Virus record (IMG/VR): IMGVR_UViG_2718218398_000002
DNA: 21,039 nt
Source of the DNA: a virus
Lineage: Duplodnaviria; Heunggongvirae; Uroviricota; Caudoviricetes
Reading direction: 5' to 3' (one strand)
Position 1 is the stretch's first letter. Each line of letters begins with the position of its first letter. Of the stretch, positions 2,370 through 20,793 are shown piece by piece. The notes under the pieces are model-generated. The model was not told the origin of the DNA, made no database searches, and saw only the letters and a list, made by a program, of their open reading frames with translations. The translations under genes and the position numbers were made by a program.

Positions 2370-2399
2370 AAATCATGCCATGCAGGCCAGAAACCGCCA

Positions 2400-2425
2400 T
2401 TATCTAAAACCTCGGTTTACAGGAA
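2400..2425. repeat. gix/pix-like 26-bp recombination site (left boundary of the invertible segment)
   Basis: TTATCTAAAACCTCGGTTTACAGGAA is a near match to the Gin/Pin crossover-site consensus as recalled. It sits just upstream of the pin remnant and is an inverted partner of 5482..5507. Confidence 0.7.
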
Positions 2426-2470
2426 ACGGTAAACAAGGCTGGTAACGCCGTTCAGCGTTCCGGCGATAAA

Positions 2471-3439
2471 ATGACCGGAGAACTGAAAATTGGCACGGTG
2501 AATGCGCTGCGAATTTTCAATGATGCCTTCGGTCTTATTTTCCGTCGTTCAGAAGATTTTCTTCATTTCATTCCGACGGCTGAAGGACAAGGCGAAAACG
2601 GTGATATCGGCCCATTAAGGCCATTCGCTATAAATCTGAGAACAGGTGCTATATCTGTCAGCCACGGGGCCAAAATTGATGGTGGGCTGGCGCTTGGTAC
2701 AGATAACGCACTGGGCGGTAATTCCATTACTCTCGGAGATAACGACACTGGTATTAAACAGGGCGGCGACGGTGTCCTTTTATTCTATTCAAATGGACAA
2801 CTGGCATTTGGGCTTCAACCCGCATCTGCTGATTTTTATAAGCGGGTTGCATATATTCATCAGGGAATAATTCCTGATGGAAGTGGCGCATTTGCAGACC
2901 AGTTGAATAATGCCACCGCGCCTTTTGTTCAGACGCAGTTTGCCTGGAATCCCACTCCTGGTGGTCTTTACGTGCCGATAGTTAAGGGCTTGTCCATTCG
3001 CAATGGACAGGGCTATCCCGGCGCGGTCAGCTTTGGGTATTTACTGACAGAACAGTATGGATTTCCGGTTCCATGTATTCATATGCGTGGCGATGGCGGT
3101 AATGATGCTTTATGGCAGTTTAACCCGAACGATAAATCCTTTATTTCACCGGGTGCTCTTATTGCGGGTGGCGTCCGTTATAACACCGATGGAAATATAT
3201 TTGGTGGGTGCTGGGGGTCAAACTTAAATGATTACCTGAATAGTTCTTTTATCAGAAATGTGCGTCTGGGAGGCAGACGTTCTGACACATTATATCGCGG
3301 AGGACTTTGCGAACCAGGTAATGGTCATGTGACAACAGGATTGCAAATTATTGGTGAGGTTGATGGAGATGACTGGATGGTGTCACGACCACTACAAAAA
3401 TACATTTCTGGTAACTGGTATAACGTTGAACAGGCATAG
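2471..3439 (+). CDS. alternative tail fiber C-terminal cassette (silent variable part, S'v-like)
   Basis: 322-aa ORF; the frame is open from 2408, directly after the gix-like site. Shares GGNSI(T/V)LGDNDTG and the C-terminal PxQKYIxGxWYNV motif with the C-terminus of the expressed fiber at 4549..7374 but differs elsewhere. No promoter or RBS of its own. Confidence 0.75.
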   Translation: MTGELKIGTVNALRIFNDAFGLIFRRSEDFLHFIPTAEGQGENGDIGPLRPFAINLRTGAISVSHGAKIDGGLALGTDNALGGNSITLGDNDTGIKQGGDGVLLFYSNGQLAFGLQPASADFYKRVAYIHQGIIPDGSGAFADQLNNATAPFVQTQFAWNPTPGGLYVPIVKGLSIRNGQGYPGAVSFGYLLTEQYGFPVPCIHMRGDGGNDALWQFNPNDKSFISPGALIAGGVRYNTDGNIFGGCWGSNLNDYLNSSFIRNVRLGGRRSDTLYRGGLCEPGNGHVTTGLQIIGEVDGDDWMVSRPLQKYISGNWYNVEQA

Positions 3440-3455
3440 CCATCAGGAGAATATA

Positions 3456-3982
3456 TGCAACATCTGAAAAATATTACCGCCGGAAACCCCAAAACCATTG
3501 AGCAGTATCAGCTTACGAAAAAAGCTGGCGTTATCTGGCTATATACAGAAGACGGTAAAAACTGGTATGACGAATTAAAAAAACTTTCAGGATGATACTT
3601 TAAAAATAGCTTATGACCAGAAGGGGATTATTCGTTGTATTGAGAAAGACGTATCAACACTTAACCCTGACGGGTTAAGTGTTGTTGAGTTACCGAATAT
3701 AACAGCCAACCGTCGCGCCGATATCTCGGGAAACTGGAAGTTTCTGGATGGTAAAGTAGTAAAGCGGGAATATACAAAACAGGAACTGCAACAGCAGGCA
3801 GAGTTACAAAAAGCCGCTTTGCTTTCCGAAGCGGAGTCTGTGATTCAACCGCTGGAACGTGCTGTCAGACTGAATATGGCAACTGATGAGGAACGCACAC
3901 GACTGGAATCATGGGAACGCTACAGCGTTATGGTCAGCCGTGTGGATACTGCAAAGCCTGAATGGCCACAGAAACCAGAATA
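3456..3982 (+). pseudogene. tail fiber assembly protein (alternative cassette tfa'), frameshifted
   Basis: SD AGGAG 6 nt before ATG 3456. N-terminus [41 protein letters not shown] parallels Tfa at 4014..4547. The frame breaks in an A7 run at 3577..3583 (one extra A relative to the in-frame reading) and homology continues in another frame to ...[13 protein letters not shown]. Confidence 0.75.
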
Positions 3983-3992
3983 ACAACAAATT

Positions 3993-4017
3993 AAGGCCCG
4001 TACGGGCCTTTTCTTAT
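3993..4017. terminator. hairpin between the convergent tfa' and tfa genes
   Basis: aaggcccg ta cgggcctt followed by TTTTCTT on the plus strand; it sits between the two convergent stop codons. Confidence 0.5.
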
Positions 4018-4547
4018 TCTGGTGGTTCCGGGAATGTTACAGGAAGAACCGAGGTATCAGTTGTCTCAACCTGTTGCACGTATCGCATCCAGTTCATCAG
4101 TTGCTGTCTGTCTGAATCAGTGATAATCCCCAAAGTAAGCTGTGTTTGCCAGAACTGCGTTTTTTCTCTGGCCTGCTGTAATAATATTTTTTTCTGGTTT
4201 TCCGTCTGTAGGCGCAACTCTTCTTCGGTATATACACGTTTAATGACTGCGCCATCTTTAAACATCCATTTACCTGAGTCGTCAGCACGCCGGTTGGCGG
4301 TAATATCAGGAATCTCAACGACGCTATAACCTTCAGGGTTAAGTGTGGAGGCATCTTTGGTTATGGCAACAATAATATTATTTTCATCGTAAACAATCTT
4401 TATGGTGTCTGGCTGAAAGTTTTTCACTTCCTCATACCAGTTTTTTCCGTCCTCAGAGTAAAGCCAGATAACTCCGTGTTTCTTTGTTAACTCATACTGT
4501 TCCAGTGTTTTAGCATTACCCGCTTTTATGTTCTTTAAGTGCATCAT
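4014..4547 (-). CDS. tfa: tail fiber assembly protein
   Basis: 177-aa intact ORF immediately downstream of the fiber gene, ending in the Tfa-type ...FPEPPE C-terminus and paralogous to the frameshifted tfa'. Confidence 0.85.
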
Positions 4548-4548
4548 A

Positions 4549-7374
4549 TTAAACGCTCGCTACATTATACCAGGTGCCATTTATATACTTTTGAACGGGT
4601 CTGTAATAAACGCCCGCTATATTATCGGCAGAGTTAGACCCTGTATCCTGAACATTAATACCAGACAATACATGACCTGAAGGGCACTGGAAATTCCATG
4701 TTTGCCAGTTGTTCACTCCATAATATTGCTGTGAACCAAGTCGAACATCTTTCACATAACGGGAATCAAAGTTACCGTAATCCGAGGGGTTAACACGCCC
4801 TGTAATATTTATGGTTTTATTACTTTGAATGCTTCCGGAGACAAAGCGCATAACATGGACGTTATTAGCATAAACATCCAGATTACCATCGCCATTTTGT
4901 TTAAAGCCCGTGTCATTATCACCCAATACAATCGAATTACCGCCAAGAGCACTGGATGTTCCGATACCCAGTGCACCATTCAGTTGACCACCAGATAACG
5001 GCAGTGCACCAACATCTCCTGCTGAAGGCTTTCTGGTGGTGGTGTAAAATTCGGACCAGTCGGCTTCAAAACCATAACCATCACGGGCTGAACGATAAAA
5101 AATACCGCCATTTTTATAATTAATCCGAAACTGAGCTGCAGGACAACTTCCTTCTCCCATATAAAAATGAATAATTAACGTTGATGCACCACTAATAGTT
5201 GCGTTATAGGCTCCGCTACTCCAGTTCCATCCAACTGCTTTATCATTCGCAACGGTGCTTCCTGTTTTCCCTAAGGCAAACGCACCAACATGACTTGCTT
5301 TTAATGTGATATCGGAGGAACCATCAAAAGCCACATTGCTTATTTTCCTGGCAGTTTTTAATTTTGCAGCTGTAGAAGCATTGCCGGATAGTTCACCAGA
5401 AAGGCCACCGCTGAATGTTTGTCGATTAGTCCAGGTATTCGCTGTACTGAGTAACGGTATTTTCTCCCCGCTTGTGCCGAGTTCTCGTAAACCGAGGTAT
5501 TCGATAACGGCGGCAACGGTCGATTTCGCAAGAATATCCCGCCCAACTTTTGTCAGGGTTGCCAGACTGGCAACATCATTCCCCGTAAAATACGGAAACC
5601 TGTCTGCCGCAGTAGCAAGCCCGGCCAGCGCCGTCAGGGTGGCATCTTTCGGTTGCTTACCCGCAAGCGCGCTAGTCATGGTGGTCGCAAAATTCGGGTC
5701 GTTGCCCAACGCCGCAGCCAGCTCGTTCAGCGTATTCAGTGCGTCAGGCGACGAGTCCACGAGGGCAGCGATCGCAGCCATAACATAAGCCGTGCTTGCG
5801 ATTTGGGTATTATTCGTTCCCTGTCGCGCAGTTGGTGTTGTTGGCGTTCCGGTCAGTGCAGGACTATTTAAGGGCGCTTTCTTGTTCGTTTCACCCATTA
5901 CCGCCTTAACCGCTTTTGGCGTTGCCGCCAGTGACTCGGAAGTGCTGTTGGTCGCACTGCTGAGCTGTACTATCCCCTTTTTCGTCGTGCTCGCATCCTC
6001 AAGCGCCACGGCGGATGCAATATCCTCTGCCCGTTTTGCCGCTGTCTCGGCGCGCGTTGCCGCGGATTCCGCCGTACTTTTGCTCTGAGCTGCCGCCGTC
6101 GCACTGCCAGCTGCCTCTGTCGCCTTCGTGGATGCCGTCGTGGCGCTGCCCTTTGCTGCTGACGCCTGTCTGGTCGCCTCATCTTTTGAAGCAGACGCAG
6201 ATGATGCCGATGACGCCGCTGAACTGGCTGACGATGCGGCTGCCGCCTTAGAGGAAGCAGCATTGTCTGCTGAAGTCTTTGCATTTGTTTCAGAGGTTTT
6301 TGCTGCAGAAGCAGACCTCGCTGCTGCAGTGGCTTGCTCAGTGGCTTTGCCAGCCTTCGTTGTGGCTGTTGAAGCGGATGATGCGGCGCTTTCTGCCGAT
6401 TTTCCGGCGGCGGTGGCACTGGCTGAGGCCTGCCCGGCACTTGTTGACGCGGCACTGGCAGATAATGCAGCCGCTGTTTTTGAACCTGCCGCAGCTGAGG
6501 CGCTCTGTCCCGCTGCTGTTTCAGAAGACTTAGCGTTCGTCTCGGACGTTTTTGCCGCCTTCGCGGAATTTCCTGCCGCCGTTGCCGAGGAAGCTGCACT
6601 ACTGGCACTTGATGATGCATTCGTTTCTGAAGATTTCGCTGCCTCTTTTGAGGCCGCCGCACCCCGTGCCGAGGTGGCAGCTTCTGACGCCTTCGTGGTC
6701 GCTGTGGATGCAGAAGTGGCTGCCGATTTTTGTGATGCTGCGGCATTCGTTTCTGACGTTTTCGCGGCACTGGCGCTGGTAGCTGCCGCGCTTTTTGATG
6801 ACTCTGCAGCAGCAGCACTTTTTGCTGCTTCACGGGCCTTTGTCGATGCCGTTCCTGCGCTGGAAGACGCTGACTGAGCCGACGACGCGGCCTGTCCGGC
6901 TGACGTGCTGGCGGCACGTGATGAGGCTGCAGCATCGGTTGCATGAGTTGCCGCCTCGCTGGCTGATGCACTGGCATCGCTGGCTGATTTTTTCGCGGCT
7001 GCCGTATTCTGTGCAACCGCGGAGGCGTTACGTGACACCTCTTCTACCATCTGCTCAAAGCGGCGCAGTGCCTCCGGTCGTACATCATCCTCCGTCATGG
7101 CACCGAGAAAATCATTCAGCGTACCTGGTCTGGAACCTTCATAGACGGTAATGGTCCCGGCATGTGAAGGCGGAAAACCTTCAACCAGCAGGGTGACGCT
7201 GTACTGACCATGCTCAACATCCATGCTGTAACGTCCGGCTTCATCCGGATTTTCAGAGGCCACCGTGTTCACCACCACCGTGCTGCTGGTTCGTCTGGCC
7301 TTCAGCACAATGGTGCAGTTCTGTACTGGTTTTCCTGTGCCATCTTTAAGCACGCCAGAAATTTTTACTGTCAT
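4549..7374 (-). CDS. stf: side tail fiber protein, lambda Stf-like N-terminus with an invertible-cassette C-terminus
   Basis: 941-aa intact ORF with RBS GGTGGA. N-terminus [26 protein letters not shown]... and the long Ala/Ser/Thr-rich repeat region resemble lambda Stf as recalled. The C-terminal ~316 aa lie inside the invertible segment and end in [18 protein letters not shown]. Confidence 0.9.
5482..5507. repeat. gix/pix-like 26-bp recombination site inside stf (right boundary of the invertible segment)
   Basis: TTCTCGTAAACCGAGGTATTCGATAA matches the reverse complement of the 2400..2425 site at 22 of 26 positions with an identical central AAACCGAGGT core. It encodes ...[11 protein letters not shown]... 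at the constant/variable junction of the fiber. Confidence 0.65.
5990..7010 (-). repeat. imperfect tandem repeats encoding the Ala/Ser/Thr-rich low-complexity region of the fiber
   Basis: Repeated peptide units such as [10 protein letters not shown] and [21 protein letters not shown]-rich and repetitive DNA that also produces long spurious ORFs in other frames (5970..7016 minus, 6128..6877 plus). Confidence 0.7.
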
Positions 7375-7388
7375 ACTTTTCCACCAAT

Positions 7389-7420
7389 AAAAAAAGCCCG
7401 CAGCAGTGACGCCACGGGCT
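7389..7420 (-). terminator. intrinsic terminator downstream of lom
   Basis: Stem agcccg...cgggct followed on the minus strand by a U7 tract; located between the lom stop and the stf RBS. Confidence 0.5.
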
Positions 7421-7520
7421 TCAGGACAGTGTAACTTTACGTTTCCTCAAACGCAGTTCACCCCATAAGGTGGATGAACCTGCGTATCATAACAATATTT
7501 ACAGAAGATAAATCGGCGTC

Positions 7521-7750
7521 TGTTGTCAGAAACGGTATCCGATACCAACAATAAATGCATCCGTTCGCCAGTCGCCACTACCGGAACCTTCATAAGCAAG
7601 GTCAATGGTCACGGATTCGGTCGGGTTAAACTGCACGCCAGCCCCCCACGCCAGAGACGTGTTGCTGTGGCGACCGTCATCACTTCCGGTCAGCACATCG
7701 TGCGTTTTCCCCTTGTTGTCAGTTACGCGGAGATAATCCCCGGAGAAAGT
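7521..7750 (-). pseudogene. lom: lom (Ail/Lom-family outer membrane protein) 3' fragment, separated by the IS insertion
   Basis: Minus-strand translation ...SGDYLRVTDNKGKTHDVLTGSDDGRHSNTSLAWGAGVQFNPTESVTIDLAYEGSGSGDWRTDAFIVGIGYRF then stop, matching the lambda Lom C-terminus. Confidence 0.85.
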
Positions 7751-7836
7751 TGCGTATTACCGTGAAGGAGATCGGTGAGTAACATCGATGGAGATCGGTT
7801 CGTGTCACTTTCACAGAACCGTTTTTTAAATTACCT

Positions 7837-8586
7837 TCACTGATCTCCTTCGGTCAACGGAGATTGTATTTTCCGCATTGATTCTCCTTTAAGTTCGATC
7901 TTGATACTGCCATGAACCAGTCGATCTAGGATGGCATCCGCATGTGTGGAGTCTCCGATCATTTTGTACCAGTTTTCCACCGGCAACTGGCTCACTACGA
8001 TGATTGAGCCTCGTTGGTACATCAGATCCACTATTTCCAGCAGGTCGCTACGCTGTTCTGATGAGAGAGGTTCCAGCCCCCAGTCATCCAGAAGCAGCAG
8101 ATCGCTATTATTCAGCCTGGTCAAAAGTTTGCTGTATCTTCCATCAGCATGCCCCTGATAGCACTGTTCCATCAGCGCTTTAAGGCGATAATAGTAGACC
8201 TTGTATCCCTGTCGGCAGGCATTATGACCAAGTGCACATGCCAGGAACGTTTTACCGCTGCCGGTGGCCCCGGTCAGTAAAATATTTTGTTTCAGGGTTA
8301 ACCAGTTTCCCTGACTGAGTGAACGGATGAGGGCCCTGTCCAGCCCTCTATTGTTACGATAATCCAGCTTTGATAACTCAGCATTAAGTCTGAACCGTGC
8401 ATGTTTGATCAGACGCTCTGCCTTCCTGTTTTCACGGCAGGTTAGTTCTTCTGCTGTCAGTAATGACAGGCGTTCTTCGAAGCCCAGCTCCTGGTATGTG
8501 CCCGGTTGAGCAAGTTGCTTTTTAAGCGCATCACGGAAGCCGGTGAGTTTAAGTGCGGTCAGTTGTTCGTAAAGATGATTCATCAT
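7837..8586 (-). CDS. istB: IS21-family transposition helper ATPase IstB
   Basis: 249-aa ORF with a Walker A motif (LTGATGSGKTFLACALG) and Walker B (LLLLDDWG), typical of IstB. Confidence 0.85.
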   Translation of the reverse strand: MMNHLYEQLTALKLTGFRDALKKQLAQPGTYQELGFEERLSLLTAEELTCRENRKAERLIKHARFRLNAELSKLDYRNNRGLDRALIRSLSQGNWLTLKQNILLTGATGSGKTFLACALGHNACRQGYKVYYYRLKALMEQCYQGHADGRYSKLLTRLNNSDLLLLDDWGLEPLSSEQRSDLLEIVDLMYQRGSIIVVSQLPVENWYKMIGDSTHADAILDRLVHGSIKIELKGESMRKIQSPLTEGDQ

Positions 8587-8597
8587 TGGATCCCGTA

Positions 8598-10139
8598 TCA
8601 GTGGTAATACTCACTGCCGCGTACGTTTTCGTGTTCCATCGTGGATAACAGATCTGGTTTTGGATCCTGAACAGGTTGTTTATCCAGACCTTTTTCCAGG
8701 ATCGATTTAATACCTGACAGACGCCATACCTTTGTTTTCAGAGCTCTTGCACATGCTGCATTAAGTCTGGCTTTACTGTATTTTTTATGAAGGTTCAGGA
8801 GTCCAAGGCAGAAGCGATAGCTTTGTTCCGGATGTGGACGAGAGTTCAGTATATGAAGCACATAACTATGAGTTTCACTGCCTATGTGCCCCGCCCATTC
8901 CAGAAGACGCTCTGGCGTCCAGGTGGCATGCTGTCGATGAGCTTCAGGCATGTGCTCGTTGCGGGTACTGTAGCCATAAGTACGCTTGCGCGGGTGCACA
9001 GCAACCTCCTGCCCCTGATTGAAGAGTCTTACCAGTTCTCCGGAGATCCATGCTTCCAGTTGCTGGCCTAACAGCGAACATGGAACCGAGTAGTAATGTT
9101 TGTCGATTTCCACGTGGTAATCGGCATGAACTCTGACTTTCTTCACCAGGGTGTAACTGTAACTGGCTTCAGGAAGAGGCTTCAGTGCGGGTTTATCAAG
9201 CTGGATGAAGAGTTCTGCACGTGAATAACCCAACTTCTGCATTATTTTGTTATTCAGTCTTTCCAGCAACTCCCGAATGCGCTGATTAAGCGATGCAAGG
9301 CTGTAGAAGATCTCATGCCTGATTCGGGCCATGATCCAGCGTTCAACAACCTGAACGCCAACTTCAGCTTTGGCTTTATCTTTCGGTTTACGTGGCCGCG
9401 CAGGCAAAACTGCGACATTATAATGCTCAAGCATCTGCTGGTAGGTAGGGTTAACGTCAGGATCATACTTACATGCCCTGGATGTGGCGCTTTTCAGATT
9501 GTCCGGAACAACAAGTTCAGGAACGCCACCCAACCACTGGAAGCAGCGAACATGACTCATCACCCAGTCTTCAAGCTGCTGAGACCAGGTGGCCTCTGCC
9601 CATGTGTAACTTGATGCCCCGAGAACAGCTACGATGACCTGAGCAGTTCTTATTTCTCCGGTCTCAGGGTCGGTAACGCCAACGGTAGGTCCACAGTAAT
9701 CAACGAAAAGTTTTTCGCCAGCTTTATGTACCTGACGCATTGATGGTGAAGTGGTTTTGAGCTATTCACGGTACATCCGGCAGTAATGGTTATAGCTGTA
9801 AAAACCGCCTGGATTACGCTCACAGTATTCTTCCCAGAGTAGCTGCAGCGTCACGCATTTATTACGCAGTTCCCGGTGTACTGTAGCCCAGTCAGGCAGA
9901 GAGTGCTTCTTCATCTTAACCTGGGTCTGAAGGAACGCATGTTTTAGTTTTGTATCATCCCATCCTGTAGGTAAGGGCCACTGCTTTATGCCAAGTTGAG
10001 CCGCCCGATTAGCATATCTGGATACAACGGAAGGGGAGATTGCAAGACTACGACCAATTTGTCGATGGCTGAGTCCAACACCGTATTTAAGCCTAAGAAT
10101 TTCTTTAAGTTTTCTCATAGAAATTGGAACTGTTGGCAT
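8598..10139 (-). pseudogene. istA: IS21-family transposase IstA, interrupted by an in-frame TAG
   Basis: The N-terminal HTH ORF (9762..10139, 125 aa) and the DDE-domain ORF (8598..9740, 380 aa) are in the same frame, separated only by an amber codon at 9762..9764 (...[19 protein letters not shown]...). Confidence 0.65.
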
Positions 10140-10332
10140 AGGTATCCTTTACCGGAATGGCAAAAGATACAGATCAACACACCTGTGAAGTTCCAATAAC
10201 ATTGATGGAGATCACTGAATAACAAAATGAGTCAAAAGTGATCTCCATCGATGTTATTCAGCGATCTGTTCAAATGTTATTACCCGATCTCGATGGAAGT
10301 TATTGAGTGATCTCCTTTCATGAAAATACGCA

Positions 10333-10712
10333 AAAGTCGACACACGGCTGTAAGCCACACCCGCCATCGCATACGCGCTGAACCATTCATTCACGCGTAC
10401 AGACGGCCCCGCCATCACGCTGAACCAGCGGTTACGCACGGAATCTTCATGCCAGCGGGTATCGCTGTAGCGCGTTTTTTGCTCATCCTCAGCATTGGCA
10501 TAACTGAAGGACGTAATCAGCCCCAGCGCGTCCGTAAACTCATAACGGTATTTCACGTTAATCCCGTTCAGATCATCACTACCGGGAACGTTCGTCGAGG
10601 CATGGAGATACCCCGCGCTCAGCGTGGACTGATGTTCTGCTGCACTCGCTGGCGTAGCAGCGGCGACCTGCCAGACTACTGCGGACAAAATAACAGCACA
10701 TAATTTACGCAT
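10333..10712 (-). pseudogene. lom: lom 5' fragment (signal peptide and N-terminal beta-barrel portion)
   Basis: MRKLCAVILSAVVWQVAAATPASAAEHQSTLSAGYLHASTN...AYSRVSTF matches the lambda Lom N-terminus up to the IS junction. SD GAGAGG precedes the ATG. Confidence 0.85.
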
Positions 10713-10737: not shown

Positions 10738-10761
10738 AAAAAGGCGCCATTTCTGGCGCCC
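10738..10761 (-). terminator. intrinsic terminator between J and lom
   Basis: Perfect stem ggcgcc / ggcgcc around a 6-nt loop, followed on the minus strand by UUUUUUAUU. Confidence 0.6.
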
Positions 10762-10779: not shown

Positions 10780-13700
10780 TCAGCTAATCGTGATGCCTGC
10801 AGTGGCTTTCTTCATCACCACAACCAGCAAATCGCTGATACTTGCTGTGGGATACCAGTTATTTACCAGCCATGCTGACACCGAAAACTCCAGTGTCATG
10901 TGACCGTGACCGGCAGGCATATCAATAACACCACTGTAAATCAGCGTATTATCCAGCGCGGTACGGTTATAAATTTCAGCACCGTTTTTCCGCACTATCA
11001 GACGGCATGAGGAGTAAATATCAGTATGCTCTTTCTCATGTTTAGCGCCGCTGAATGCCACCGCCGGAATAACAATCTGCCGGTCAAACGGCTGATCGTC
11101 ATAAACCCTGACGGTAATGGTTCCTGATGGCCACCGCTCCGGTGCACGGGAGTCCCGGGGGAAAGCTTTGCCCACTGTTTTAACGAGATCGCCTTCAATC
11201 TGGTTCGCGGACAATTTTCCCAGAACCCGACAGTTCTCGTTAATCGTGACGTTGTTGAGCGTCCCGGAGTTCGCATTCACGTTACCGCTGATATCGGCAT
11301 TTTTCGCCGTCAGCCGCCCGTCCGGTGTCAGGGAAAATGCCGGAGGATTACCGCCGCTGGTAATGGTGGGAGCCGTCAGATATTTCAGGAACACTTCATT
11401 CATAAATATCTGATCGCCCTGACCAACAAACATCGGCTTTGTGTTGCCATTCGCAGGATTAATCATCGCAATCCTGTCTGCCGCCAGCAGCACCTGACTC
11501 TGCATTCCTGCTGGCGTATTCTCAATACCGGCACCGATACCCGCAATATAAAGGCGTCCGTCCTGCATCTGCTGCAGTTTCACGGCCCACATGCTGTTCA
11601 GGTTATTATTTGTATCAACCTGAACTTTCTGTATCTGCTGGATTGCCGCACTCTGATTTTCCAGTTTTTTATTGACGGTCTGCGTGATTTCATTGCTGAC
11701 ATTCGTAATGGACGTCCTGATTTCAGCCAGGTCCGGCGCAAGCTGACCGTTATCAATCTGCGTCCACAGCTCCTGGGCCAGATGTGTTTTCCCGATTTCT
11801 CCTTTGAAAAAATCCAGGTAACCTTCCGCATCATCGCTCGCCCGACCGACAGCCTCCACGAATGCCGATTTGCCAACAGTATTCACACTGCGGATATAAA
11901 AATAATAATCATGGCCCGGTTTGATATTGATACTGGCAGCTATCCAGTACAGCGCCGAGCCAAGATAGCGGGCTGCGGTTTCAACCTGCCTGATATCCGC
12001 AATCCGCTTTTCCGAGAACCAGAACTCAAACTGTACCGTCGGGTCATAAACGGCAAGATGTGGCGTTGCGGTTATCTGAAAATAGCCCGGCGTCAGCTCA
12101 ATCCGCGACGGTGCTGCCGGTGCGGCAATCCGGAAGGTGGTGGTGGCAGGTTCACCCTGCTGGCCATAGCTGTTTATCGCCCGCACCGTCAGGGTGTATT
12201 CCCCGAGCGGCAGGCCGCTGAAACGGTGCTCCGTGTCTGCGGTGATGGCGGTGGTCACCAGTCTGGCATCCGTTCCCTTACCACTGGTCAGGCGCAGACT
12301 GAAGCGCACACCCTTCACCACCCGCGGCGTGTCCATTTCGCCTGCGCCAGATACTGGCCGTCAGCTGCGCTCACCTCCACCGTCAGGTGCTGCACTGCCG
12401 GTGGGATGACGCTGTTCAGGGAACCTGACTGCGGCTCAAAGCGGGCACCGTTATCCACGATGGCTTCTTTTTCCGGTACGTGCTGCACCGCCGTGATGGC
12501 AAAGGTGCCGTCCGTGTTTTCCCGGATGGAGACACAGCGGAACAGGCGACGGCGCAGTGACGGCAGGGAGAGTCCCCCACACCCCGTATGTCTCCACACC
12601 ATCAGGCAGGGTACTGACCTGTATCCGGTCCGGCGCGGGGTGTGCGGTGATGTCCACACTCACCGGCTTACCGCTGCCGTTAATCAGGTTCACCGCCGAT
12701 GTACCTGTCTCCGGCAGGGTAACCTCACGGTCCAGCGTCAGGGTGCGGGTGGCAGCATCAATGGACAGGACACGTCCGCCGGTCAGGGTCCCGGCATAGT
12801 CATTATCACAGATTTCAATAATGTCACCGGGTGTGTGCCGCAGCCCCTGAGACCCGAGCGTGAAATCCACCGTCTGCGTTTCCAGCAGTTCGGTCTTTAT
12901 CACCCACAGTCCGGCACGGTGGGCCTGACCGCGGCTGGTACAGCCGAACGCGTCCATCTTCAGCAGGTTGCGTCCGTAGCGCAGTATGGCTTCCGGGTCT
13001 TCCACCAGTTCCGTGGAGGTCTGCCAGCCGTTCTGCGGGTCGGTGTAATTCACCTCCACCGCCGTGTGCCGGTCCTTCAGGGCACTGAAGCTGTAGCGGA
13101 ATCCCACGCCGTTATCATCCACCACCACATCGCTGTTGGTGTACGGCCACACCACATCCGACGGGCGGTCCTGAACGAACGTCAGCGTCTGACCGTTCCA
13201 TACCGGGCATACAGCGCATCGCAGAGCAGAAATCACTGAGAACGTCCCACGCCTTACGCTGTTGTGCCAGGTACGCATTAAAGGTCATCCGCGGCTCGGT
13301 CCCCCCGAAACCATCCGGGACCGTCTGGTCGCAGTACTGCCCGATGGCATACAGCGCCCACTTGTCCACATCCGCCGCCCCCAGACGTTTTTCCCATGCC
13401 GTAGCGCGGGTGAGTCAGCATGTCCCACAGACACCAGGCCGGGTTGTTGCTGTATGCCGGTTTCAGACTGCCGTCCCAGATACCACTATACGTGCGTTTT
13501 TCCGGGTCATAGTTTGACGGCACCTGGATGATGCGACCGCGGATATGGTAGTTCACCGTCATCTGCTGGCCGCCGAACTGCTCCGCATCCACCTGCAGCC
13601 CCACAATGGCCGTGTTCGGGTAGCACTGTTTCACATCGATGATTTCGGTGTATGACGACCACAGCGTCTTATTCTGCAGCTGGTCCGTGGTGCTGTCCGC

Positions 13701-14255
13701 CGTCTCCCTGACCATCCGGATGTTAAAGGGCCGGGGAGGCAGATTATCCAGAATCACCGAGGCCAGGAACTGTGAGGTGGTCTTGCCGTTAATGGTGACG
13801 TCCTTTTCTGTCACCCAGTTACCGTTACGCTGTAACTGAATCAGCAGGCGGACGGATGCCGGGTTACGGTCACCCTTTGAGGTGGTCTCCACCAGTGACT
13901 GCACCCCGAAGGTAACCCGCAGGCGGTCAATGTTCGCGGACGTAATGGTGCGCGTCACCGGTTTTGCCTTCGTCACTTCCACGCCCAGTCCGGTTTCAGC
14001 TCCGGAGGACTCAAAGCCTTCCGGTGGTGTCTGCTCCTGCTCCCCGGCGCGCCAGACCGCCGTCACACCGTGTATCACGGGATTGCCGTCCGTGTCCGTC
14101 AGTGGGGTTTTGTTCACCAGAATACTCTGCAGTCCCTTCACCGGACCTTCTATCGGTCCCTCACCAATCGCATCAATCACGCTCATCATCTGCGTGGATT
14201 TGAGATTATCCTTCGCCTCACGAGGCGTGTGTGCCTTACCGCCACCTTTTCCCAT
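10780..14255 (-). pseudogene. J: tail tip / host specificity protein J, broken by four single-base frameshifts
   Basis: Five consecutive minus-strand ORFs (13278..14255, 13115..13369, 12451..13278, 12315..12659, 10780..12336) are collinear with lambda J from its MGKG... N-terminus onward. Each junction is a 1-bp indel in a homopolymer (near 13387..13391, 13205..13207, 12573..12577 and 12337..12338). Confidence 0.85.
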
Positions 14256-14359
14256 ACAGCCTTCCCCTGAATAAATTAACCGCCACTTGCCATTCCGTAC
14301 AGAAGTCGGATATCCTTCGCCCGAAAAGCATGAAACACATTTCTGCCATGCTAAAGAGA

Positions 14360-14393
14360 AACCCCGGTATCAGCAGATACCGGGGTTTTCTTT
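14360..14393. terminator. strong hairpin inside the I-J intergenic insert
   Basis: Perfect 11-12-bp stem accccggtatc / gataccggggt with loop agca, followed by TTTTCTTTC on the plus strand and UUUCUCUUU on the minus strand. Confidence 0.45.
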
Positions 14394-14462
14394 CATGCCC
14401 ACCGATAATCCTGTTGGTTAAAACCGGGTAATGGCATAAAAATTTCTGAATATCTTCACATT

Positions 14463-14490
14463 TTCACACACTGACTGTGGCGCTTATAAT
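14463..14490 (+). promoter_or_regulatory. near-consensus sigma70 promoter, plus strand, antisense to the tail operon
   Basis: TTCACA (14463..14468), 16-bp spacer, TATAAT (14485..14490), with an AT-rich UP-like tract just upstream (14433..14460). Confidence 0.4.
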
Positions 14491-14496
14491 TTCGCT

Positions 14497-14594
14497 GCGT
14501 TAGTGTTTTTTTGCCCGAGTAACAAAAACAACTCCTTAACATTGATCTTCATTTGTCTGTCCCCGCAGCTCCGCGATCACTGCGGGATTTTTTT
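14497..14594 (+). ncRNA. candidate ~100-nt small RNA (promoter to terminator, no ORF)
   Basis: Lies between the predicted transcription start after the TATAAT box and the intrinsic terminator at 14562..14594. Contains no ATG with an SD. Confidence 0.25.
14562..14594 (+). terminator. intrinsic terminator, plus-strand orientation, abutting the I stop codon
   Basis: Stem cccgcag...ctgcggg followed by T7 (14588..14594). On the minus strand an A-run precedes the stem, so it is not a canonical terminator for gene I. Confidence 0.5.
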
Positions 14595-14599
14595 ATGTT

Positions 14600-15282
14600 T
14601 TATCCCTGTCGCCCGATAACCACGACCGTTCCGCCCCCGCCTTCATCACGGGTGCTGATGTCCTGGGATATACGGCGGGAGCCAACCAGCATTTCCCCGT
14701 AAGGCACCGGCATCGGGTTCCCCTGGGCAATCATGTTATCCAGCGAGGAAAAGTACGTGTTCTGTCTGCCGTTATCCGTTGCGCGGTAATCCGGTGTTTT
14801 TGCCTTCGGGGCCAGCATCTGGGCCACACCGCCCAGAATCATGCTGGCTCCAAGTGAAAACAGCATCGTGGTGGCAGAAAAACCACCGGGCTGCCAGGGC
14901 TGAACCCCATAACGCCATTGATGCCCCGGCAGTGAAGAAAGAGCCCACGATGGCTGCCGCCCCCAGGCACAATCTGCAGTCCACCCTTTCCGGCCCCGGC
15001 CAGTCGCGGCACAATATGGATGACCGTTCCCTCACCCAGCTGTTCGTGAAGACGGGCGTACACCGCCTCCGGTGCCGTGTCATAACCGGCAATACGTATC
15101 TGGTACCAGCCTTCGTTCATCTGACGGCGAAAGCCCGGCACCTGTAACGACAGCGCCCGGATGGCTTCCGCTGCCGTGTTCACATACAGGCTGAGGCGGC
15201 GGCCAAATCGTTGTAAATCCCCGTGAAGGCAGATGCGTGCCAGTGGCGGTGACGCCAGACAGAATGCGTTCGTCGTTGCCAT
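14600..15282 (-). pseudogene. I: tail assembly protein I, two frameshifts
   Basis: Three overlapping minus-strand ORFs (14839..15282, 14772..15092, 14600..14866) are collinear with lambda I (ARICLxGDLQRFGRR ... AAAIxGSFFTAGA ... LFSLGASMxLGGVAQMLAPKA ... NTYFSSLDNM). Confidence 0.8.
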
Positions 15283-15922
15283 TTTTCGGAATACCTCTCC
15301 CGTTTACTCAGTTGTTCAGGCAGATGGTGAAGCAGCTCACCGTTGCCGCAGTAAATGGCGGCATGGTTCGGTACCGAAGCACCAAAGCAGCACAGCAGAA
15401 TATCGCCCGCCTGTGCAGAGGACAGGGGCACCCGGTAAAAGCCGGTGACCGCCATATTGTCCAGGTAAAGGTTCTGACCGTTGCGCCACCAGTCATCCTC
15501 GCGATGAAATCCGGCATTTCAGTCCCCGCCAGATGATAAGCATCCCGGAACAGCGTGTAACAGTCCGTCACCCCGTGCTCAAAGCGCCGTCCTGTCAGAT
15601 GTGGCACACAGCGGAATTTGTGAATGTCACCCCGGCAGACCAGCCACCAGGGCAGTGCGCTTTTTATCTGCAGCCGCCGGTCAGCCTCGCTCAGCCAGGG
15701 CAGCCCACCGGGATGACTGTGGACCAGTGCCACAATCTCCCCCTGCATCTCTGCCCGCAGCCAGTCTTCCGGTGCGATACGAAAATACGCCTCCGGCTCT
15801 GCAGAAATATTCACACAAGGGATATACCACTCCCCCTCCGACGTGCTTATCACGAAGCCGCACGACTCCGCAGGCGCACACCGCCGGGCATGCGCCAGAA
15901 TCGCTGATTCAGTCTGTGTCAT
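15180..15922 (-). pseudogene. K: tail assembly protein K (MPN/JAMM plus NlpC/P60-like), one frameshift
   Basis: MTQTESAILAHARRCAPAESCGFVIS...HSHPGG...DCYTLFRDAYHLAG then a frame break (a single-base deletion near 15505, changing TTCC to TTC in the coding sense), continuing as ...VTGFYRVPLSSAQAGD...PNHAAIYCG... in the ORF 15180..15455. Overlaps the start of I by about 100 nt. Confidence 0.8.
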
Positions 15923-15932
15923 AAACCGGGAT

Positions 15933-16631
15933 TTACTGCGAAAGTTTATTAATGGAAAGGAAACCGCCAAAATTGCCGACATTCCTGCGCAGTTCACACC
16001 CGCGCATGCACTTGCTGCATCTGTCCTTACGGATATCCGTGGTGGGGTTGTCGAACTCATCCGCCACCGCAGGACCGTTATACCCGCATTCATCTCCCCG
16101 GTAATCCCACATACAGGTGTTCGCCAGCATGATGCGACCGGGAAACAGCGCCCCATCCGTCTCGGTCGGTGTAGCCAGCACAAACGAGGCCGTCATGGCT
16201 GTCAGCTGCGACATCTGCTCCACCACCCAGCGGTCACTCAGCTCCTGCTCCGGGTCCGCCTCCGGATTGCCCGCAACGAAATTCACCGCATCCAGAAAAC
16301 GGGCATACACCCGGCGGCGGACCACCGTGGCCCCCACCAGACTCTGCAGGTCTTCCGCCATCCCGGTGACCAGACCGAACAGATTGGACACCGTCAGCGA
16401 CGGTCTGGCACTGCTGCCCTTCCCGCTCATCTCAAAACCGCTGCCGTCAATCGGGTATGCCTGATATTGCCGCCCCTGCCAGGTGACCGGCTCCCCTTTT
16501 TCATTCAGCTCATTACAGAAAAAATACCGCTCACCGCCCTGTACCGTCAGGTCGATTTCCCAGAGTACCACCCGCGGTGACTGCTCTGACTTAACCGACT
16601 CGTTCAGACTTTCTTCGCGAATATCCTGCAT
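15933..16631 (-). CDS. L: tail tip assembly protein L
   Basis: 232-aa intact ORF; MQDIREESLNE...GNFGGFLSINKLSQ is collinear with lambda L throughout. Confidence 0.9.
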   Translation of the reverse strand: MQDIREESLNESVKSEQSPRVVLWEIDLTVQGGERYFFCNELNEKGEPVTWQGRQYQAYPIDGSGFEMSGKGSSARPSLTVSNLFGLVTGMAEDLQSLVGATVVRRRVYARFLDAVNFVAGNPEADPEQELSDRWVVEQMSQLTAMTASFVLATPTETDGALFPGRIMLANTCMWDYRGDECGYNGPAVADEFDNPTTDIRKDRCSKCMRGCELRRNVGNFGGFLSINKLSQ

Positions 16632-16972
16632 CAGTTCACCACCTGCTCAATCGTACAACTGAAATCACTGTGCCTGGCGTTATCTGTGACGCTCCACTCC
16701 CGGCACACCACCCTCACCGTCAGGTTATGTTTCGGCGGTCGCCACAAAAAGGCACGGTAACCACCATGCCACGATAAAAATTCATCCAGCCAGCGCCGGG
16801 TTGGTTCATCCGTCACCCGGAACACCGCCTGAAACGTCTTCAGTCTGGCATTAAGTCCCGTCGGTCGGCGCTGTTCATAACCGTCACCAAACCGAACCCT
16901 CACCACCGACGGTTTCTCACTCACCTGCATCCCTTCACGCGGGACCAGATGCAGCGTTTTTATCTCAGCCAC
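16631..16972 (-). CDS. M: minor tail protein M
   Basis: 113-aa intact ORF with the lambda M-like core VRFGDGYEQR and C-terminus IEQVVN; its stop overlaps the L start. Confidence 0.85.
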   Translation of the reverse strand: MAEIKTLHLVPREGMQVSEKPSVVRVRFGDGYEQRRPTGLNARLKTFQAVFRVTDEPTRRWLDEFLSWHGGYRAFLWRPPKHNLTVRVVCREWSVTDNARHSDFSCTIEQVVN

Positions 16973-19900
16973 TCAGCATTCCTCCGTCACGTCGCATGGA
17001 CAGCATCACCGCCTGCACCCGCTGGTCAATCAGCTGCACAAGACTGCCTGCCGCCTCCGCCCCTATCTGTCCGTTAGCCCCGTCATTCTGAATGGCGATG
17101 TGGTAGACCGGGGAATACACCAGACCGGCACTGCCGTTCATACTGCCCACCGCGCGTACGCCCAGCGAGCCATCCGCCGCCCGGGTCAGGGGCATAATGG
17201 CTTCAGGTCCGGCTTCCCCCATCAGCCCGGCCCCTTTTGCAAACGCAAAGTACGTGGGCGTGTCCACAATGCTGTTGCTGTACGCACTCAGGTTTGCCGA
17301 GGTATACACGCCGCCTTTTGCATTGGCCACCGCACCGCCCAGCCAGTCACCAATGCTGCCAATAAATCCTCCCGCACCGGACATACCGTTTGCCGCCGTC
17401 TTAATTCCGTTGACAATCGCAGCATTCATAAGAAACTTTTGAGATTTCCTGCAGTACGGATGAGGCCCAGTTGCGCCATTCCACTTTGTTTCCGTTCAGC
17501 ATCTCCGTGATGTTATTCACCATCCCTGAGATACCCTCCGTCGCAAGCTGTGCTGCCTGTGAGGCGTAATCGGATGCATTGTCCACCCAGTTACTGAGCC
17601 CCTCCTGCAAGCCTTTCTGCCAGTCCGCACGCTGCGCATCCGATTCGGCATAAAAGGCTGCCTGGTCCTTAAGGCGTTCGCTCAGATACTGCGCGTTCTG
17701 TGCCCGTGCCTGTCTGTAAAAATCCTCACTGATATCCCCGGTCTGATACTGAGACTGAAGGTCCGCATCCTTCTGGCGGAAGCTGTCACGGATCTGCTGC
17801 AACTCCCGCATGCGTTCCCTGGCTCGTTCTCCCTGCCCGTATCCCAGCAGTTCGGCTTCATTTGATGCACGCGCAGCCACATTATCATTCTTCAGGGTCT
17901 CTTCCCGGGATCGCAACTGTTCCCGGATTTTTTGCTGGTCAATCAGGGCCGCGTTACGCAGCAGTTCCTGCTTCTGCATCTCCGTCAGGGTTTTCAGTTC
18001 GCCCTGCGCAGTCTGGTACTTCAGCTTCGCCAGCTCTGTATTCTGACCCGCCAGTGCCAGTTGCTCTTTCTGCTGCTTCAGTAGCCGGGAAAAACTGTCT
18101 TCCGCTTTTTCCGTCTCTGATTTTCCACCCCGGGATTTAGGTTTGTTCGCCTCGTTATTACGCCAGGCTTCCAGAGCATTACTGATATAACGCTGTCTCG
18201 CCTCCTGATACGAATCCCCCACAAAACCAAGGTCATCCGCCGCATACCCCAGCCGGGCACGCTCTTTTTCCTCCCCTTCAGTCGGGACAGGGCCAGCTCA
18301 CGTTCTGTTTTTGTCAGGGCGCTCTGCTGTTTATCATCCAGGGTGGCCTGCGGCAGCCGTAACGGTACATTCACCAGTCCCTGACGCTGCTGAAGCAGTT
18401 CATTCCCCAGCCCCAGCAGACGGTTGAATTCCGTATGCTGACCGTTCATAACCAGCATGGACTGGTACACCTATTCTGCTCTGCCGCCTGCTGACGAATT
18501 AACGCCACACGACGGTCTTCCAGCCCGGCAAGCACATCCTGAATGGACTGCGCTTTTTCCTGCATCTGTGCCAGACGGGACTGCTCAACGGCAAGCTGCT
18601 CTGTTGCCTGAGAAAGCCCTTCCGTCACGGTCTTCACCGATGTCAGATGGTTTATCATGAATCCGTCACCGGTTGTCCAGCCAGGGTTAGCCAGAACATA
18701 CTGATATCCAGCGATTTTTTCCTGCAGGGATTTCACCCGGCTGGCCTGTTCATCAATCAGCCGGTTCTGCTCTGCCAGCGCCGCCCGTGTTCGTCCTTCA
18801 TTATCTGAGGCTTCAGGCAAAGACATTGACGGCGTTTTATGCGCGATTTCATCTATCGTCAGCATAAGTGCATACTGGCGCGCTGACTCCCTGGCCTGCT
18901 CCTGATTCTGGTACAGCGTATACCATGCTGCTGCCCCAGCATCACCAGTCCGGGTACGCCACCAACCAGTCCCAACGCACCAGTCATCAGACGTGAGCCC
19001 ACCGCCGTTGTACTGTTCAGCTCATTCTGGGCTGCGGTTCTGGCAGCAATATTTCTGTTCAGGCGTTCCTGTGTGGCCGCCAGACGGGCTTCTGCAGCAA
19101 TCTGCATCTCCGTCCCGCGGCTGCCGCCACAGCCTGCTGTGCACGGTACACGGCTGCCCTTGCCCGCGCCGTGGCAATCTGCGTCCCCCTGAGCTGTGCT
19201 TCCGCCAGTGCCACTTCATTACGTGCTGCCGTCACAAGTCCTGCCGTGGCAGCAGACACCCGCTCCGGAGGCCATATTGCCAAAGTACCGGGCAACCCCG
19301 ACGGCAACCAGCGCCCCCGCGGCTGTTGCCACATTATCAATATTACCGGCAACACCGTTCAGCACGCCGGAGAGCGTTTTCGTCGCTCCGCTGGCTTCAT
19401 TCGCGCCACCCACCCAGGCCATAAAGGCGTTTTCCACCTTTGTGATCCCGTCAGAGACCGTTTCCGGCATGGCGGCATATTCATCACGCAATACCCCCAG
19501 CTGGCTGATTAACGCAGGAACGACTTTATCCGCCGTCAGTTTGCCGTCGTCCGCCATCGCCTTAAGGTCTTTACGGGCCACGCCCATACCCGCAGCCAGT
19601 GCACGTACGATCCGGTCTCCGCTTTCATTGACCGAATTAAATTCCTCACCGCGTAACACACCCTGTGCCAGCGCCTGGCTGAACTGGGTGATCACCGAGC
19701 CCGCCTCTGCCGTACTGGCACCGGAGATTTTCAGCCCCGTGGAAATGGCCTCCGTCACCTTCAGCACATCATCAGCACTGTAACCATATTCACGCATTGA
19801 GGCTGCCGAGCGGGCAAACAGGGCCGCATTATCTGAAAATGCCGTGCCCGTCCGCTGGCTGATATCCATCAGCACTTTCTGTGATGACGAAAATTCATCG

Positions 19901-20216
19901 GATGACTGCGACGCGCCTGTTTCAGTCGGGCATTCACGGAACTCCATTCATCGGCCAGAGAAATCAGGTGTCCGGTGGCAAAGGCACCTGCAAATGCCCC
20001 CGCCGTTCCGGCAGCTGAAGCGCGGATTTCCGTCAACTGGCTGTTCAGCTCAGCCAGGGCGCGTCGCTGCACCCGGGCGACTGCGGCAGCCTGACGCCCG
20101 CCATTCTGCAGGGTCCGGTAATATTCACTGCCCATGCGGGAAGCCCGCTGGATCTCCGACTGGAATGACTGCGAATTTGCCGAAATTTTGATAATCAGTT
20201 CACGTAACGTCGCCAT
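16965..20216 (-). pseudogene. H: tail tape measure protein H, at least seven frameshifts
   Basis: Chain of eight overlapping minus-strand ORFs from 19869..20216 (N-terminus MATLRELIIKISANSQSFQSEIQRA) to 16965..17429 (C-terminal Gly-rich region resembling the lambda H C-terminus). Total span about 3.25 kb. Confidence 0.8.
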
Positions 20217-20263
20217 TCACCTTTCTCCGGGCGTAAAAAAACCGCCTCAGCGGTTCTCATCAT

Positions 20264-20766
20264 TCATGACTGTGCTGCGAAGCTCAGCGCGTCTTCCAGC
20301 GCCGCAAACGGATCCACCTCCGGCTTATCCTCATCCTCGCCCCAGCAGAGCATGGCGTCCTTCAGTGCAACATTCATCCCCTGTGCCCCAAAAACCGCTT
20401 TCACGATCTGTGCATTACGGATATCCCCGCGCTCATCACCCAGCGGGGATACCCTGTCGAACTCCATCCACATCATCGCCTCGCTCACACTCAGGCTGTG
20501 CCGCAGTTCGGATAAGGTGCGCCCCAGACGGAGCGCAAGTCGCATCAGAAAGCGAATTTCCGGGCGGGCTACTTTTTTCTGGCCGACTCTGCATCAGCGA
20601 TCAGTTCCAGTGCCTGACGCAGCAACCGGGCATGTACCGGACCATAGACGGCCAGCACCTGCTCACGGTCGTCCGGAGCGAACACCCGCTGCAGATCCGT
20701 ATCACACAGGACATCGCAGAACAGCGTCACATCCGCTTCTAGGTTACGGCGGGTTTTCGCCACCAC
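20264..20766 (-). CDS. tail assembly chaperone G with -1 frameshift extension (G/GT pair)
   Basis: The zero-frame ORF 20569..20766 ends ...ESARKK then TAG. The -1 frame continues as VARPEIRFLMRLALRLGRTLSELRHSL...AAQS to the stop at 20264, just upstream of the tape measure start. The junction is a canonical slippery heptamer. The zero-frame ORF may extend upstream through the TGA at 20794. Confidence 0.6.
20572..20578 (-). promoter_or_regulatory. programmed -1 ribosomal frameshift slippery heptamer A_AAA_AAG
   Basis: The mRNA reads aga AAA AAG TAG; the X_XXY_YYZ heptamer is in the correct phase and immediately precedes the zero-frame stop. Confidence 0.55.
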
Positions 20767-20793
20767 CGACAGGGTATCGTCATCCTCTCTCCA

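Follow-up and report, generated by a model that had tools for sequence, protein, structure and literature searches.

The stretch of DNA analysed here, hereafter called the window (21,039 nucleotides), contains at positions 7751..10332 a complete, 2,582-bp copy of the IS21-family element ISEc12 on the minus strand, which interrupts the lom gene of a lambdoid prophage. The element and its surroundings are composed as follows:

7526..7750, minus strand: 3′ part of lom, including its stop codon
7746..7750: target-site duplication AAAGT, istB-proximal side
7751..7766, plus strand: right (istB-proximal) terminal inverted repeat, 5′-TGCGTATTACCGTGAA read inward
7764..7855: right-end subterminal repeats, with 7764-7783 and 7787-7806 as direct repeats 23 bp apart and 7839-7855 inverted
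7837..8583, minus strand: istB, intact, encoding the AAA+ helper ATPase (Pfam IstB_IS21, PF01695)
8598..10139, minus strand: istA frame of 513 codons plus stop, with one in-frame TAG
10204..10318: left-end subterminal repeat cluster, units of about 20 bp with a GGAGATC/GAGATC core (10299-10318, minus; 10276-10295, minus; core at 10240-10246, minus; 10204-10223, plus)
10317..10332, minus strand: left (istA-proximal) terminal inverted repeat, 5′-TGCGTATTTTCATGAA on the IS sense strand
10333..10337: target-site duplication AAAGT, istA-proximal side
10333..10712, minus strand: 5′ part of lom (approximately codons 1-127), whose reading frame continues into the IS to give a 152-aa chimera (10254-10712)

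Over its full length, the element is 99.9% identical at the DNA level to copies that RefSeq/PGAP names "IS21-like element ISEc12", and it is on these annotated copies, not on an ISfinder entry, that the name rests. Copies so annotated, at 99.9% identity, are found in 1,907 of 5,426 complete E. coli genomes. The reference copies measure 2,581 bp, and the additional base of the window, one T in a non-coding T-run at about position 7822, is probably a consensus error.

Between the duplications, the element starts with TGCGTATT and ends with AATACGCA (7751-10332), and it displays the 5′-TG...CA-3′ end pattern and the repeated subterminal sites of the IS21 family. The terminal inverted repeats are imperfect (17 nt, 82% complementary; arms at 7750-7766 and 10317-10333, repeat I11). 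Further repeat families (D1, D2 and I1-I7) lie at the IS ends; GGAGATC occurs eight times in the window as compared to 2.15 expected, with six of the eight within the IS ends, and the 20-mer repeat pattern matches the window four times where none is expected. By analogy with IS5376 (PMC10122671), the left-end repeats are presumed to be IstA binding sites (L1, L2 and so on), and those of the right end are taken as putative R1/R2 binding sites. The gene layout is the two-gene arrangement of IS21 elements: istA (10139 to 8598) is followed by istB (8583 to 7837) 12 nt further on, both on the minus strand. IstB scores 227.5 bits with Pfam PF01695 and 270 bits with NCBIfam NF038214 (cut-off 200), and the istB range shows no difference from the reference ISEc12 copy. 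IstA, once Trp126 is restored, reaches 310.5 bits with NCBIfam NF033546, "IS21 family transposase" (cut-off 160). With termini that fit the family and both proteins above the IS21 equivalog cut-offs, the original prediction of an IS21-family element holds.

The disruption of lom

Removal of the element together with one AAAGT restores a lom reading frame of 600 nt and 199 aa. It is identical at 600 of 600 nt to intact, annotated lom in other E. coli, and its product matches Pfam Ail_Lom (PF06316) across residues 1-199 of 199 with 414 bits. A 5-bp match would arise by chance with a probability of about 1e-3, and the doubt that this leaves about the target duplication is removed by the perfect reconstitution of lom. 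Furthermore, 5-bp duplications were also seen at five other ISEc12 insertions; an ISEc12 copy in tssM is flanked by the 5-bp duplication ACTGC (PMC10711316), and many IS21 members generate 5-bp target repeats (PMC11208146). RefSeq labels at equivalent loci are in line with the split, the 5′ piece being called "Ail/Lom family ... missing C-terminus" and the 3′ piece "missing N-terminus". Given AAAGT on both sides and a lom frame that is continuous after removal, the predicted clean interruption of lom with a 5-bp duplication is confirmed.

Whether this matters to the lysogen is a separate question. The split Lom would be non-functional in this prophage, and the original suggestion that Lom is lost thus stands for this copy. 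The proposed phenotypic consequence is weakened by the presence of other lom-like genes, of which E. coli genomes have a median of two, and some ST131 genomes (THO-003) carry, besides the disrupted lom, an intact one that is 100% identical.

The original prediction also spoke of a recent single insertion. Read as an event private to this genome, this does not hold, because the lom::ISEc12 junction (70-mer) is present in approximately 343 complete E. coli genomes, among them the ST131 genomes EC958 and JJ1887, and also CD306. Judged from this identical junction, the insertion is old and would serve as a marker across the ST131 clade. The host prophage corresponds to Phi4 of EC958 (sequence comparison; PMC4134206). 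ISEc12 is a well-known E. coli element, and both the insertion and the stop codon in istA are ordinary; a literature search found no specific description of the lom disruption in ST131.

The interrupted istA frame

The reading frame of istA and its parts are arranged as follows:

9765..10139, minus strand: terminated product, IstA residues 1-125, with N-terminal HTH-1 and HTH-2 and without the catalytic domain
9762..9764, minus strand: amber TAG replacing Trp126 (TGG), read as CTA on the plus strand
8598..9740, minus strand: downstream remainder, with the rve/DDE core and a Mu-transposase-like beta-barrel and without a DNA-binding domain

The TAG, at codon 126 of 514, is the sole internal stop of a frame that is otherwise open, as had been predicted. 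It reflects a G>A change on the sense strand, i.e., T for C at plus-strand position 9763. The reference protein, WP_001298859.1, is an intact IstA of 513 aa with TGG at this codon, and it is encoded at the same locus in EC958, 4/0 and 4/1-1. A 61-mer spanning the TAG was compared with RefSeq complete genomes, where none of 4,217 places on chromosomes or plasmids matched it at 100%, and with PLSDB, where none of 679 places did; plasmids of the same strain were looked for there, and no TAG copy was seen on any. TGA at codon 126 was likewise absent from these approximately 4,900 copies. Since the reference IstA is one continuous 513-aa protein and the stop is missing from all these copies, the TAG is a nonsense mutation and marks neither two naturally separate ORFs nor a site made for readthrough. 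Comparison with reference copies, which the original prediction had named as the check, therefore speaks for a broken frame, and the suggestion of a dependence on amber readthrough is not supported, given the absence of the stop from the 4,217 and 679 copies and, as detailed below, the occurrence of stops at every Trp codon tested.

What the interrupted gene can still produce follows from where the stop falls. IstA matches the Pfam families rve and Mu-transpos_C_2, finds IS5376 IstA in the PDB (E = 3e-13), and has weak Sigma70_r4 HTH matches at its N-terminus (residues 10-46, Pfam). In a full-length alignment, Trp126 corresponds to residue 104 of IS5376 IstA, whose HTH-2 spans residues 55-104 (PMC10122671). 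The domain boundary of the 125-aa product is drawn from this full-length alignment, since a phmmer search of the fragment alone against the PDB returned only non-significant HTH-like matches; a single-sequence AlphaFold model of the fragment had a mean pLDDT of 41, too low to be of use. With the stop placed after the two HTH domains and before the DDE catalytic core, the copy would be unable to make transposase, in agreement with the original suggestion that the element may be non-autonomous, its transposase frame being broken by a single TAG. Low-level natural readthrough of UAG may occur at codon 126. The downstream part has a possible restart at Met134 that would yield 380 aa, and direct reading found no Shine-Dalgarno-like sequence upstream of this ATG. 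Any disruption in the 5′ part of istA gives the same called 380-aa protein.

At best, the TAG copy could be mobilised in trans by other copies of ISEc12. A supply of intact IstA in the source genome is suggested by its relatives, as related ST131 genomes carry ISEc12 at 3-8 places each. Many transposases act preferentially in cis.

Reality and origin of the amber codon

The DNA of the window derives from a poor-quality, redundant contig of 32,764 bp in a long-read assembly, such that the window alone cannot prove any single base correct. As compared to EC958 and strain 4/0, between which there is no difference, it contains approximately 21 indels over 13.5 kb, mostly in homopolymers, and these break gpJ and the tape-measure gene. 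In such a redundant, error-rich contig, the apparent gpJ and tape-measure pseudogenes are artefacts. One might therefore suppose that the TAG, too, is an error of base calling or of the consensus, introduced in an extra contig of low coverage, and that istA is really intact. Besides the indels, the frameshifted fragments, which are unique to this one GenBank contig, and its odd internal join to rluB would be in keeping with this. However, the errors of the window are all indels, whereas the TAG is due to a substitution, and 20.8 kb contain no other; within ISEc12, position 9763 and the extra T are all that separates the copy of EC958 and strain 4/0 from that of the window. Furthermore, the source assembly encodes the exact 125-aa product on its 5.29-Mb chromosome as well, and GCA_001030365.1, an independent assembly free of the indels and with gpJ and the tape-measure gene intact, carries lom::ISEc12 with the same TAG as its sole difference from the reference. 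On the basis of these two records a sequencing error was ruled out, and we consider it highly improbable. With a clean, independent assembly that agrees on the TAG in this lom insertion, the stop is genuine.

A genuine stop could still be a functional one, with IstA made by programmed or suppressor-dependent readthrough that keeps transposition very low. In E. coli, a stop followed by C tends toward weak termination. The codon after the TAG does begin with C, and the frame beyond it is perfectly open. However, a recoding signal would be expected to be conserved among functional copies, and here the approximately 4,900 other copies have no stop at this position and the reference codon is TGG. 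Where codon 126 is a stop in other genomes, TAG and TGA appear interchangeably and on dead haplotypes, at a frequency no higher than at nine other Trp codons. An Rfam scan of the window gave no matches, and no other recoding signal was found in it. We therefore regard such a function as extremely improbable.

Stops at codon 126 recur in other ISEc12 copies. Eight loci encoding the 125-aa product could be fully read, and they represent at least six independent events, with TAG or TGA, on different haplotypes and at different sites; in one case two different stops occur in the same insertion (L008 and L013). The fragment moreover ends exactly at the HTH-2 boundary (alignment; PMC10122671). This could indicate a mutational hotspot, or selection for the stop, e.g., because a free HTH-1/HTH-2 fragment represses ISEc12 in trans. 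Yet the loci were ascertained by their exact product, so that only codon 126 was visible, and in several of the carriers istB is already broken as well, as is usual when a copy decays neutrally. An exact-sequence control on ten Trp codons found truncation products for all of them, on 6-41 contigs each, with 28 contigs for W126* and comparable counts for W84, W102, W180, W185, W192, W202, W268, W364 and W407. A hotspot or selection at codon 126 was rejected on this ground, and we hold it to be very unlikely. One can go a step further and imagine that the 125-aa fragment binds all ISEc12 ends and damps transposition in trans, while stop-bearing copies remain mobile through IstA provided in trans. 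That such copies can move is suggested by the haplotype TGA126 + 802T, which occupies two sites (L007, with a clean GATGG duplication, and L011). This, too, seems unlikely to us. Such an inhibitor would be trans-dominant, like truncated transposases of other systems.

Since nine other Trp codons are turned into stops just as often, the TAG is background decay by mutation in one of the many copies of this element, neither conserved nor regulatory.

Proposed course of events and relation to known systems

We propose the following course of events, which we regard as very probable as a whole. The sequences themselves show which element this is, where it inserted, its duplication, the ancestry of the insertion, and the nature, rarity and reality of the stop, whereas the order of events, the loss of function and a possible mobilisation in trans are inferred. 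ISEc12 would have transposed into lom of Phi4, a lambdoid prophage, in a strain from which much of E. coli ST131 descends. If the element works as other members of the IS21 family do, a tetramer of IstA on the subterminal repeats would join it to target DNA that the IstB ATPase has bent, with strand transfers 5 bp apart and subsequent repair producing the AAAGT duplication. The 199-aa Lom beta-barrel would thereby be split after approximately residue 127, such that the prophage makes no Lom. A single G>A transition would have followed much later, in a small sublineage to which the source genome belongs. It would have converted Trp126 from TGG to TAG, so that translation stops past the two N-terminal HTH domains and before the DDE core, and transposase is no longer made. 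With its ends and istB intact, the copy would be non-autonomous and mobile only with IstA from other ISEc12 copies of ST131, a case of ordinary decay.

The significance of this history goes little beyond bookkeeping. The lom::ISEc12 junction provides a ready lineage marker for prophage Phi4 of ST131, and the stop at codon 126 could mark a small sublineage. There is also a word of caution, in that a redundant, error-rich contig contains apparent pseudogenes that are artefacts, yet also a lone substitution that is genuine. The control on ten Trp codons further shows that, in collections as large as these, any particular stop in a widespread IS will turn up repeatedly through separate events, and recurrence alone is no evidence of function.

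The closest known relative is the lom copy of EC958 (NZ_HG941718.1, 1480017..1482540), which shares the element, site, orientation and 5-bp duplication, agrees at 2,580 of 2,581 aligned bases and has an identical istB. It differs in that codon 126 of istA is TGG there and TAG in the window (G>A), and in that the window has one extra T in the non-coding T-run. The insertion of ISEc12 into tssM in ST131 clade C (PMC10711316) involves the same element with a 5-bp duplication and is likewise one ancestral, gene-inactivating event inherited clade-wide, but its target is a type VI secretion gene and not a prophage lom. As in phage lambda, lom has the tail-tip gene J on one side and the side tail-fibre gene on the other, is flanked by terminator-like hairpins and, after reconstitution, matches Pfam Ail_Lom over its full length, whereas in this prophage the gene is split. 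With the IstA-IstB machinery of IS5376/IS21 (PDB 8q4d, 8b4h; PMC10122671, PMC11208146), ISEc12 has in common the two-gene layout, an IstA composed of an N-terminal HTH region, DDE core and beta-barrel, the AAA+ helper IstB, repeated subterminal sites (whose binding is predicted in ISEc12) and 5-bp target repeats. The similarity to IS5376 IstA is distant, however, with its E value of 3e-13 extending over residues 107-389, and IS5376 IstA has about 400 aa as compared to the 513 aa of the ISEc12 protein, which is known from sequence.

ISEc12 in lom and the spread of the insertion

The element that interrupts lom in the window is a copy of ISEc12. It is 99.9% identical over 2,582 bp to copies annotated 'IS21-like element ISEc12', which are present in 1,907 of 5,426 complete E. 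coli genomes, with a median of three places per genome.

7751-10332: ISEc12 copy, 2,582 bp, two genes, both on the minus strand
10139->8598, minus strand: istA (transposase) frame, 514 codons, sole internal stop TAG at codon 126 (9762-9764)
8583/8586->7837, minus strand: istB (helper ATPase), 248/249 codons

IstA with the Trp restored reaches 310 bits against NCBIfam 'IS21 family transposase' (cut-off 160), and IstB reaches 270 bits against 'IS21-like element helper ATPase IstB' (cut-off 200). Pfam places rve and the Mu-transposase beta-barrel in the IstA part downstream of the stop, and the second gene matches IstB_IS21. The element starts with TGCGTATT and ends with AATACGCA; its terminal inverted repeats are imperfect, and each end carries several 20-bp repeats that share a GGAGATC core and are spaced by 23 bp. 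These repeats correspond to the multiple IstA binding sites of IS21-family ends (PMC10122671), and the architecture of the ends is as expected for the family.

The insertion into lom is clean. AAAGT stands on either side of the element (7746-7750 and 10333-10337), and removal of the element and one AAAGT leaves a 600-nt ORF whose 199-aa product matches Pfam Ail_Lom from end to end and which is identical (600/600) to intact lom genes of other E. coli. Thus, the original prediction of an IS21-family element in an otherwise continuous lom, with a 5-bp duplication, was as an observation right in every detail. A 5-bp duplication is the rule for ISEc12, being found at five further insertions that we fetched (TGTGT, GATGG, CTAAT, ACGTA and ACTTT) and at tssM::ISEc12 of ST131 (ACTGC; PMC10711316), and many IS21 members make 5-bp repeats (PMC11208146).

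The insertion had also been taken for a recent single event, of which only the second half holds. A 70-mer spanning the lom/IS junction occurs in 343 complete genomes, the ST131 references EC958 and JJ1887 among them, and these genomes match the whole window at 99.9% identity over 20.8 kb. The insertion is thus one event that a large clade has inherited; judged by this distribution, it is neither private nor very recent. The region corresponds to EC958 prophage Phi4, which is integrated beside ompW and the trp operon (PMC4134206). Its 3.1-kb invertible tail-fibre segment (2394-5513) lies in the orientation opposite to EC958, with recombined 26-bp crossover sites at 2414 (+) and 5493 (-) and a complete tail-fibre ORF (4549-7374, 941 aa). 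This switch has been described before (Forde et al. 2014); with the local invertase gene truncated, it is driven in trans.

Window quality and the amber codon

EC958 and strain 4/0 are mutually identical over 13,526 bp, and the window differs from both by one substitution, the TAG, and by about 21 indel events. The indels lie at 12332-20842, plus 3577 and 7822, mostly in homopolymers or short repeats, and include one 6-nt, one 4-nt and two 2-nt insertions. They fragment gpJ (10780-12336, 12451-13278, 13278-14255) and leave the tape-measure gene in several pieces. Among publicly recorded proteins, these fragments are confined to one 32,764-bp GenBank contig, 'Escherichia coli O25b:H4' (ANK07186-ANK07204), a companion to a 5,289,898-bp chromosome. 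The 21:1 ratio of indels to substitutions, together with fragments unique to one contig, argues for consensus errors rather than real pseudogenes. The T-run at 7817-7822 in the right end of the IS has one T more (at 7822) than all reference ISEc12 copies; this T, in non-coding sequence that separates the R2 repeat from the stop codon of istB, is most likely another such error.

The last 197 bases of the window (20842/20843 to 21039) come from within the chromosomal gene rluB and meet the interior of the Phi4 tail-assembly gene T at a 2-bp microhomology (CT). In reference genomes, rluB lies 11.7 kb past the opposite end of the window, and its distance to gene T is 32.7 kb, equal to the whole source contig. 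Either the assembly produced a chimera or a permuted contig here, or the join marks a tandem duplication or circle. Long-read assemblers put out additional contigs of low coverage in this kind of situation (PMC4134206), and the best reading of the indels is that they are consensus errors in such a redundant contig.

With the window of such poor quality, the reality of the TAG base needed checking. A base-calling artefact is ruled out, since the assembly's own 5.29-Mb chromosome also has a record of the exact 125-aa product, and since an independent assembly, GCA_001030365.1, has lom::ISEc12 with the same TAG as its sole difference from the reference, beside intact gpJ and tape-measure genes. 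On these two records, the TAG is genuine.

In EC958, 4/0 and 4/1-1, istA at this locus is a single uninterrupted 513-aa gene (WP_001298859.1) rather than two natural ORFs, with TGG at codon 126, from which the window copy departs by a single G>A change. A 61-mer probe with the TAG at its centre had no perfect match in 4,217 places of 1,478 complete genomes or among 679 PLSDB plasmid places, and a second probe found TGA at this codon to be absent there as well. The proposed dependence on amber readthrough is thus without support, and the TAG is a nonsense mutation in one ISEc12 copy.

Stops at codon 126 in other copies

The exact 125-aa product occurs in 61 blocks of a large assembly collection, in many genomic contexts, though such exact-product counts are inflated by two short-read contigs (L009, L012) that end exactly at codon 126 (IS position 569/570) and mimic the product, probably through an assembly-graph break at a base polymorphic between IS copies. 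Eight complete loci, with several ISEc12 haplotypes and five insertion sites, have TAG (three) or TGA (five), with at least six independent events overall. Loci L008 and L013 share one and the same insertion, with a CTAAT duplication, and carry TAG126 and TGA126, respectively. Their ISEc12 haplotype (2119T, 2148A; L008 9808-12388, L013 1000-3580, L014 2-2582) has istB split into 123 + 111 aa, and the two are independent stops at one codon of an already defective copy.

Since this look-up is able to find truncations at codon 126 only, a control covered the truncated products that stops at nine further istA Trp codons should give, and all nine exist.

Contigs with the exact product of a stop at each istA Trp codon
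W84: 11
W102: 23
W126: 28
W180: 41
W185: 24
W192: 15
W202: 6
W268: 18
W364: 15
W407: 31

A hotspot or selection at codon 126 was dropped as an explanation, because these counts make the codon unremarkable. In several carriers of the stop istB is broken also. The codon-126 stops are the background decay expected of a multi-copy element sampled very many times.

Consequences for the element and the host

W126 aligns with residue 104 of the solved IS5376 IstA, the end of the second HTH domain, where the linker to the DDE core is about to begin (PMC10122671); the truncated protein is therefore just the DNA-binding module. The remaining 380 codons encode the catalytic core and the beta-barrel, which contacts IstB (PMC11208146), without the DNA-binding domains, and no Shine-Dalgarno sequence precedes Met134. 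We infer that this copy cannot make transposase, in line with the suggestion that it may be non-autonomous. With its ends and istB intact, and with three to eight ISEc12 places in related ST131 genomes, its mobilisation in trans is conceivable. ISEc12 at different sites in L007 (6087-8667, with a clean GATGG duplication) and L011 (4781-7361) has both TGA126 and variant 802T, which is absent from 4,232 RefSeq places. This is one hint, suggestive only, that stop-bearing copies move, a transposase-dead element having perhaps been mobilised in trans.

As predicted, this prophage has lost its Lom, and the 5′ piece of lom continues into the IS as a 152-aa chimera. A phenotype for the lysogen is doubtful, because lom-like genes occupy a median of two places per genome, and some ST131 genomes, such as THO-003, have a 100% identical intact lom in another prophage beside the disrupted copy. 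Terminator-like minus-strand hairpins with T-runs flank lom (10742-10761, after gpJ; 7393-7422, after lom and before the tail-fibre gene), so that lom appears to form a small transcription unit by itself, as a gene expressed in the lysogen is expected to.

RefSeq annotation of the junction-bearing genomes already has both lom pieces and the IS. The original prediction was a correct observation: element and site are both known, the clone is well studied, and the inactivating point mutation is rare but ordinary. Nothing in it departs from IS21-family biology.
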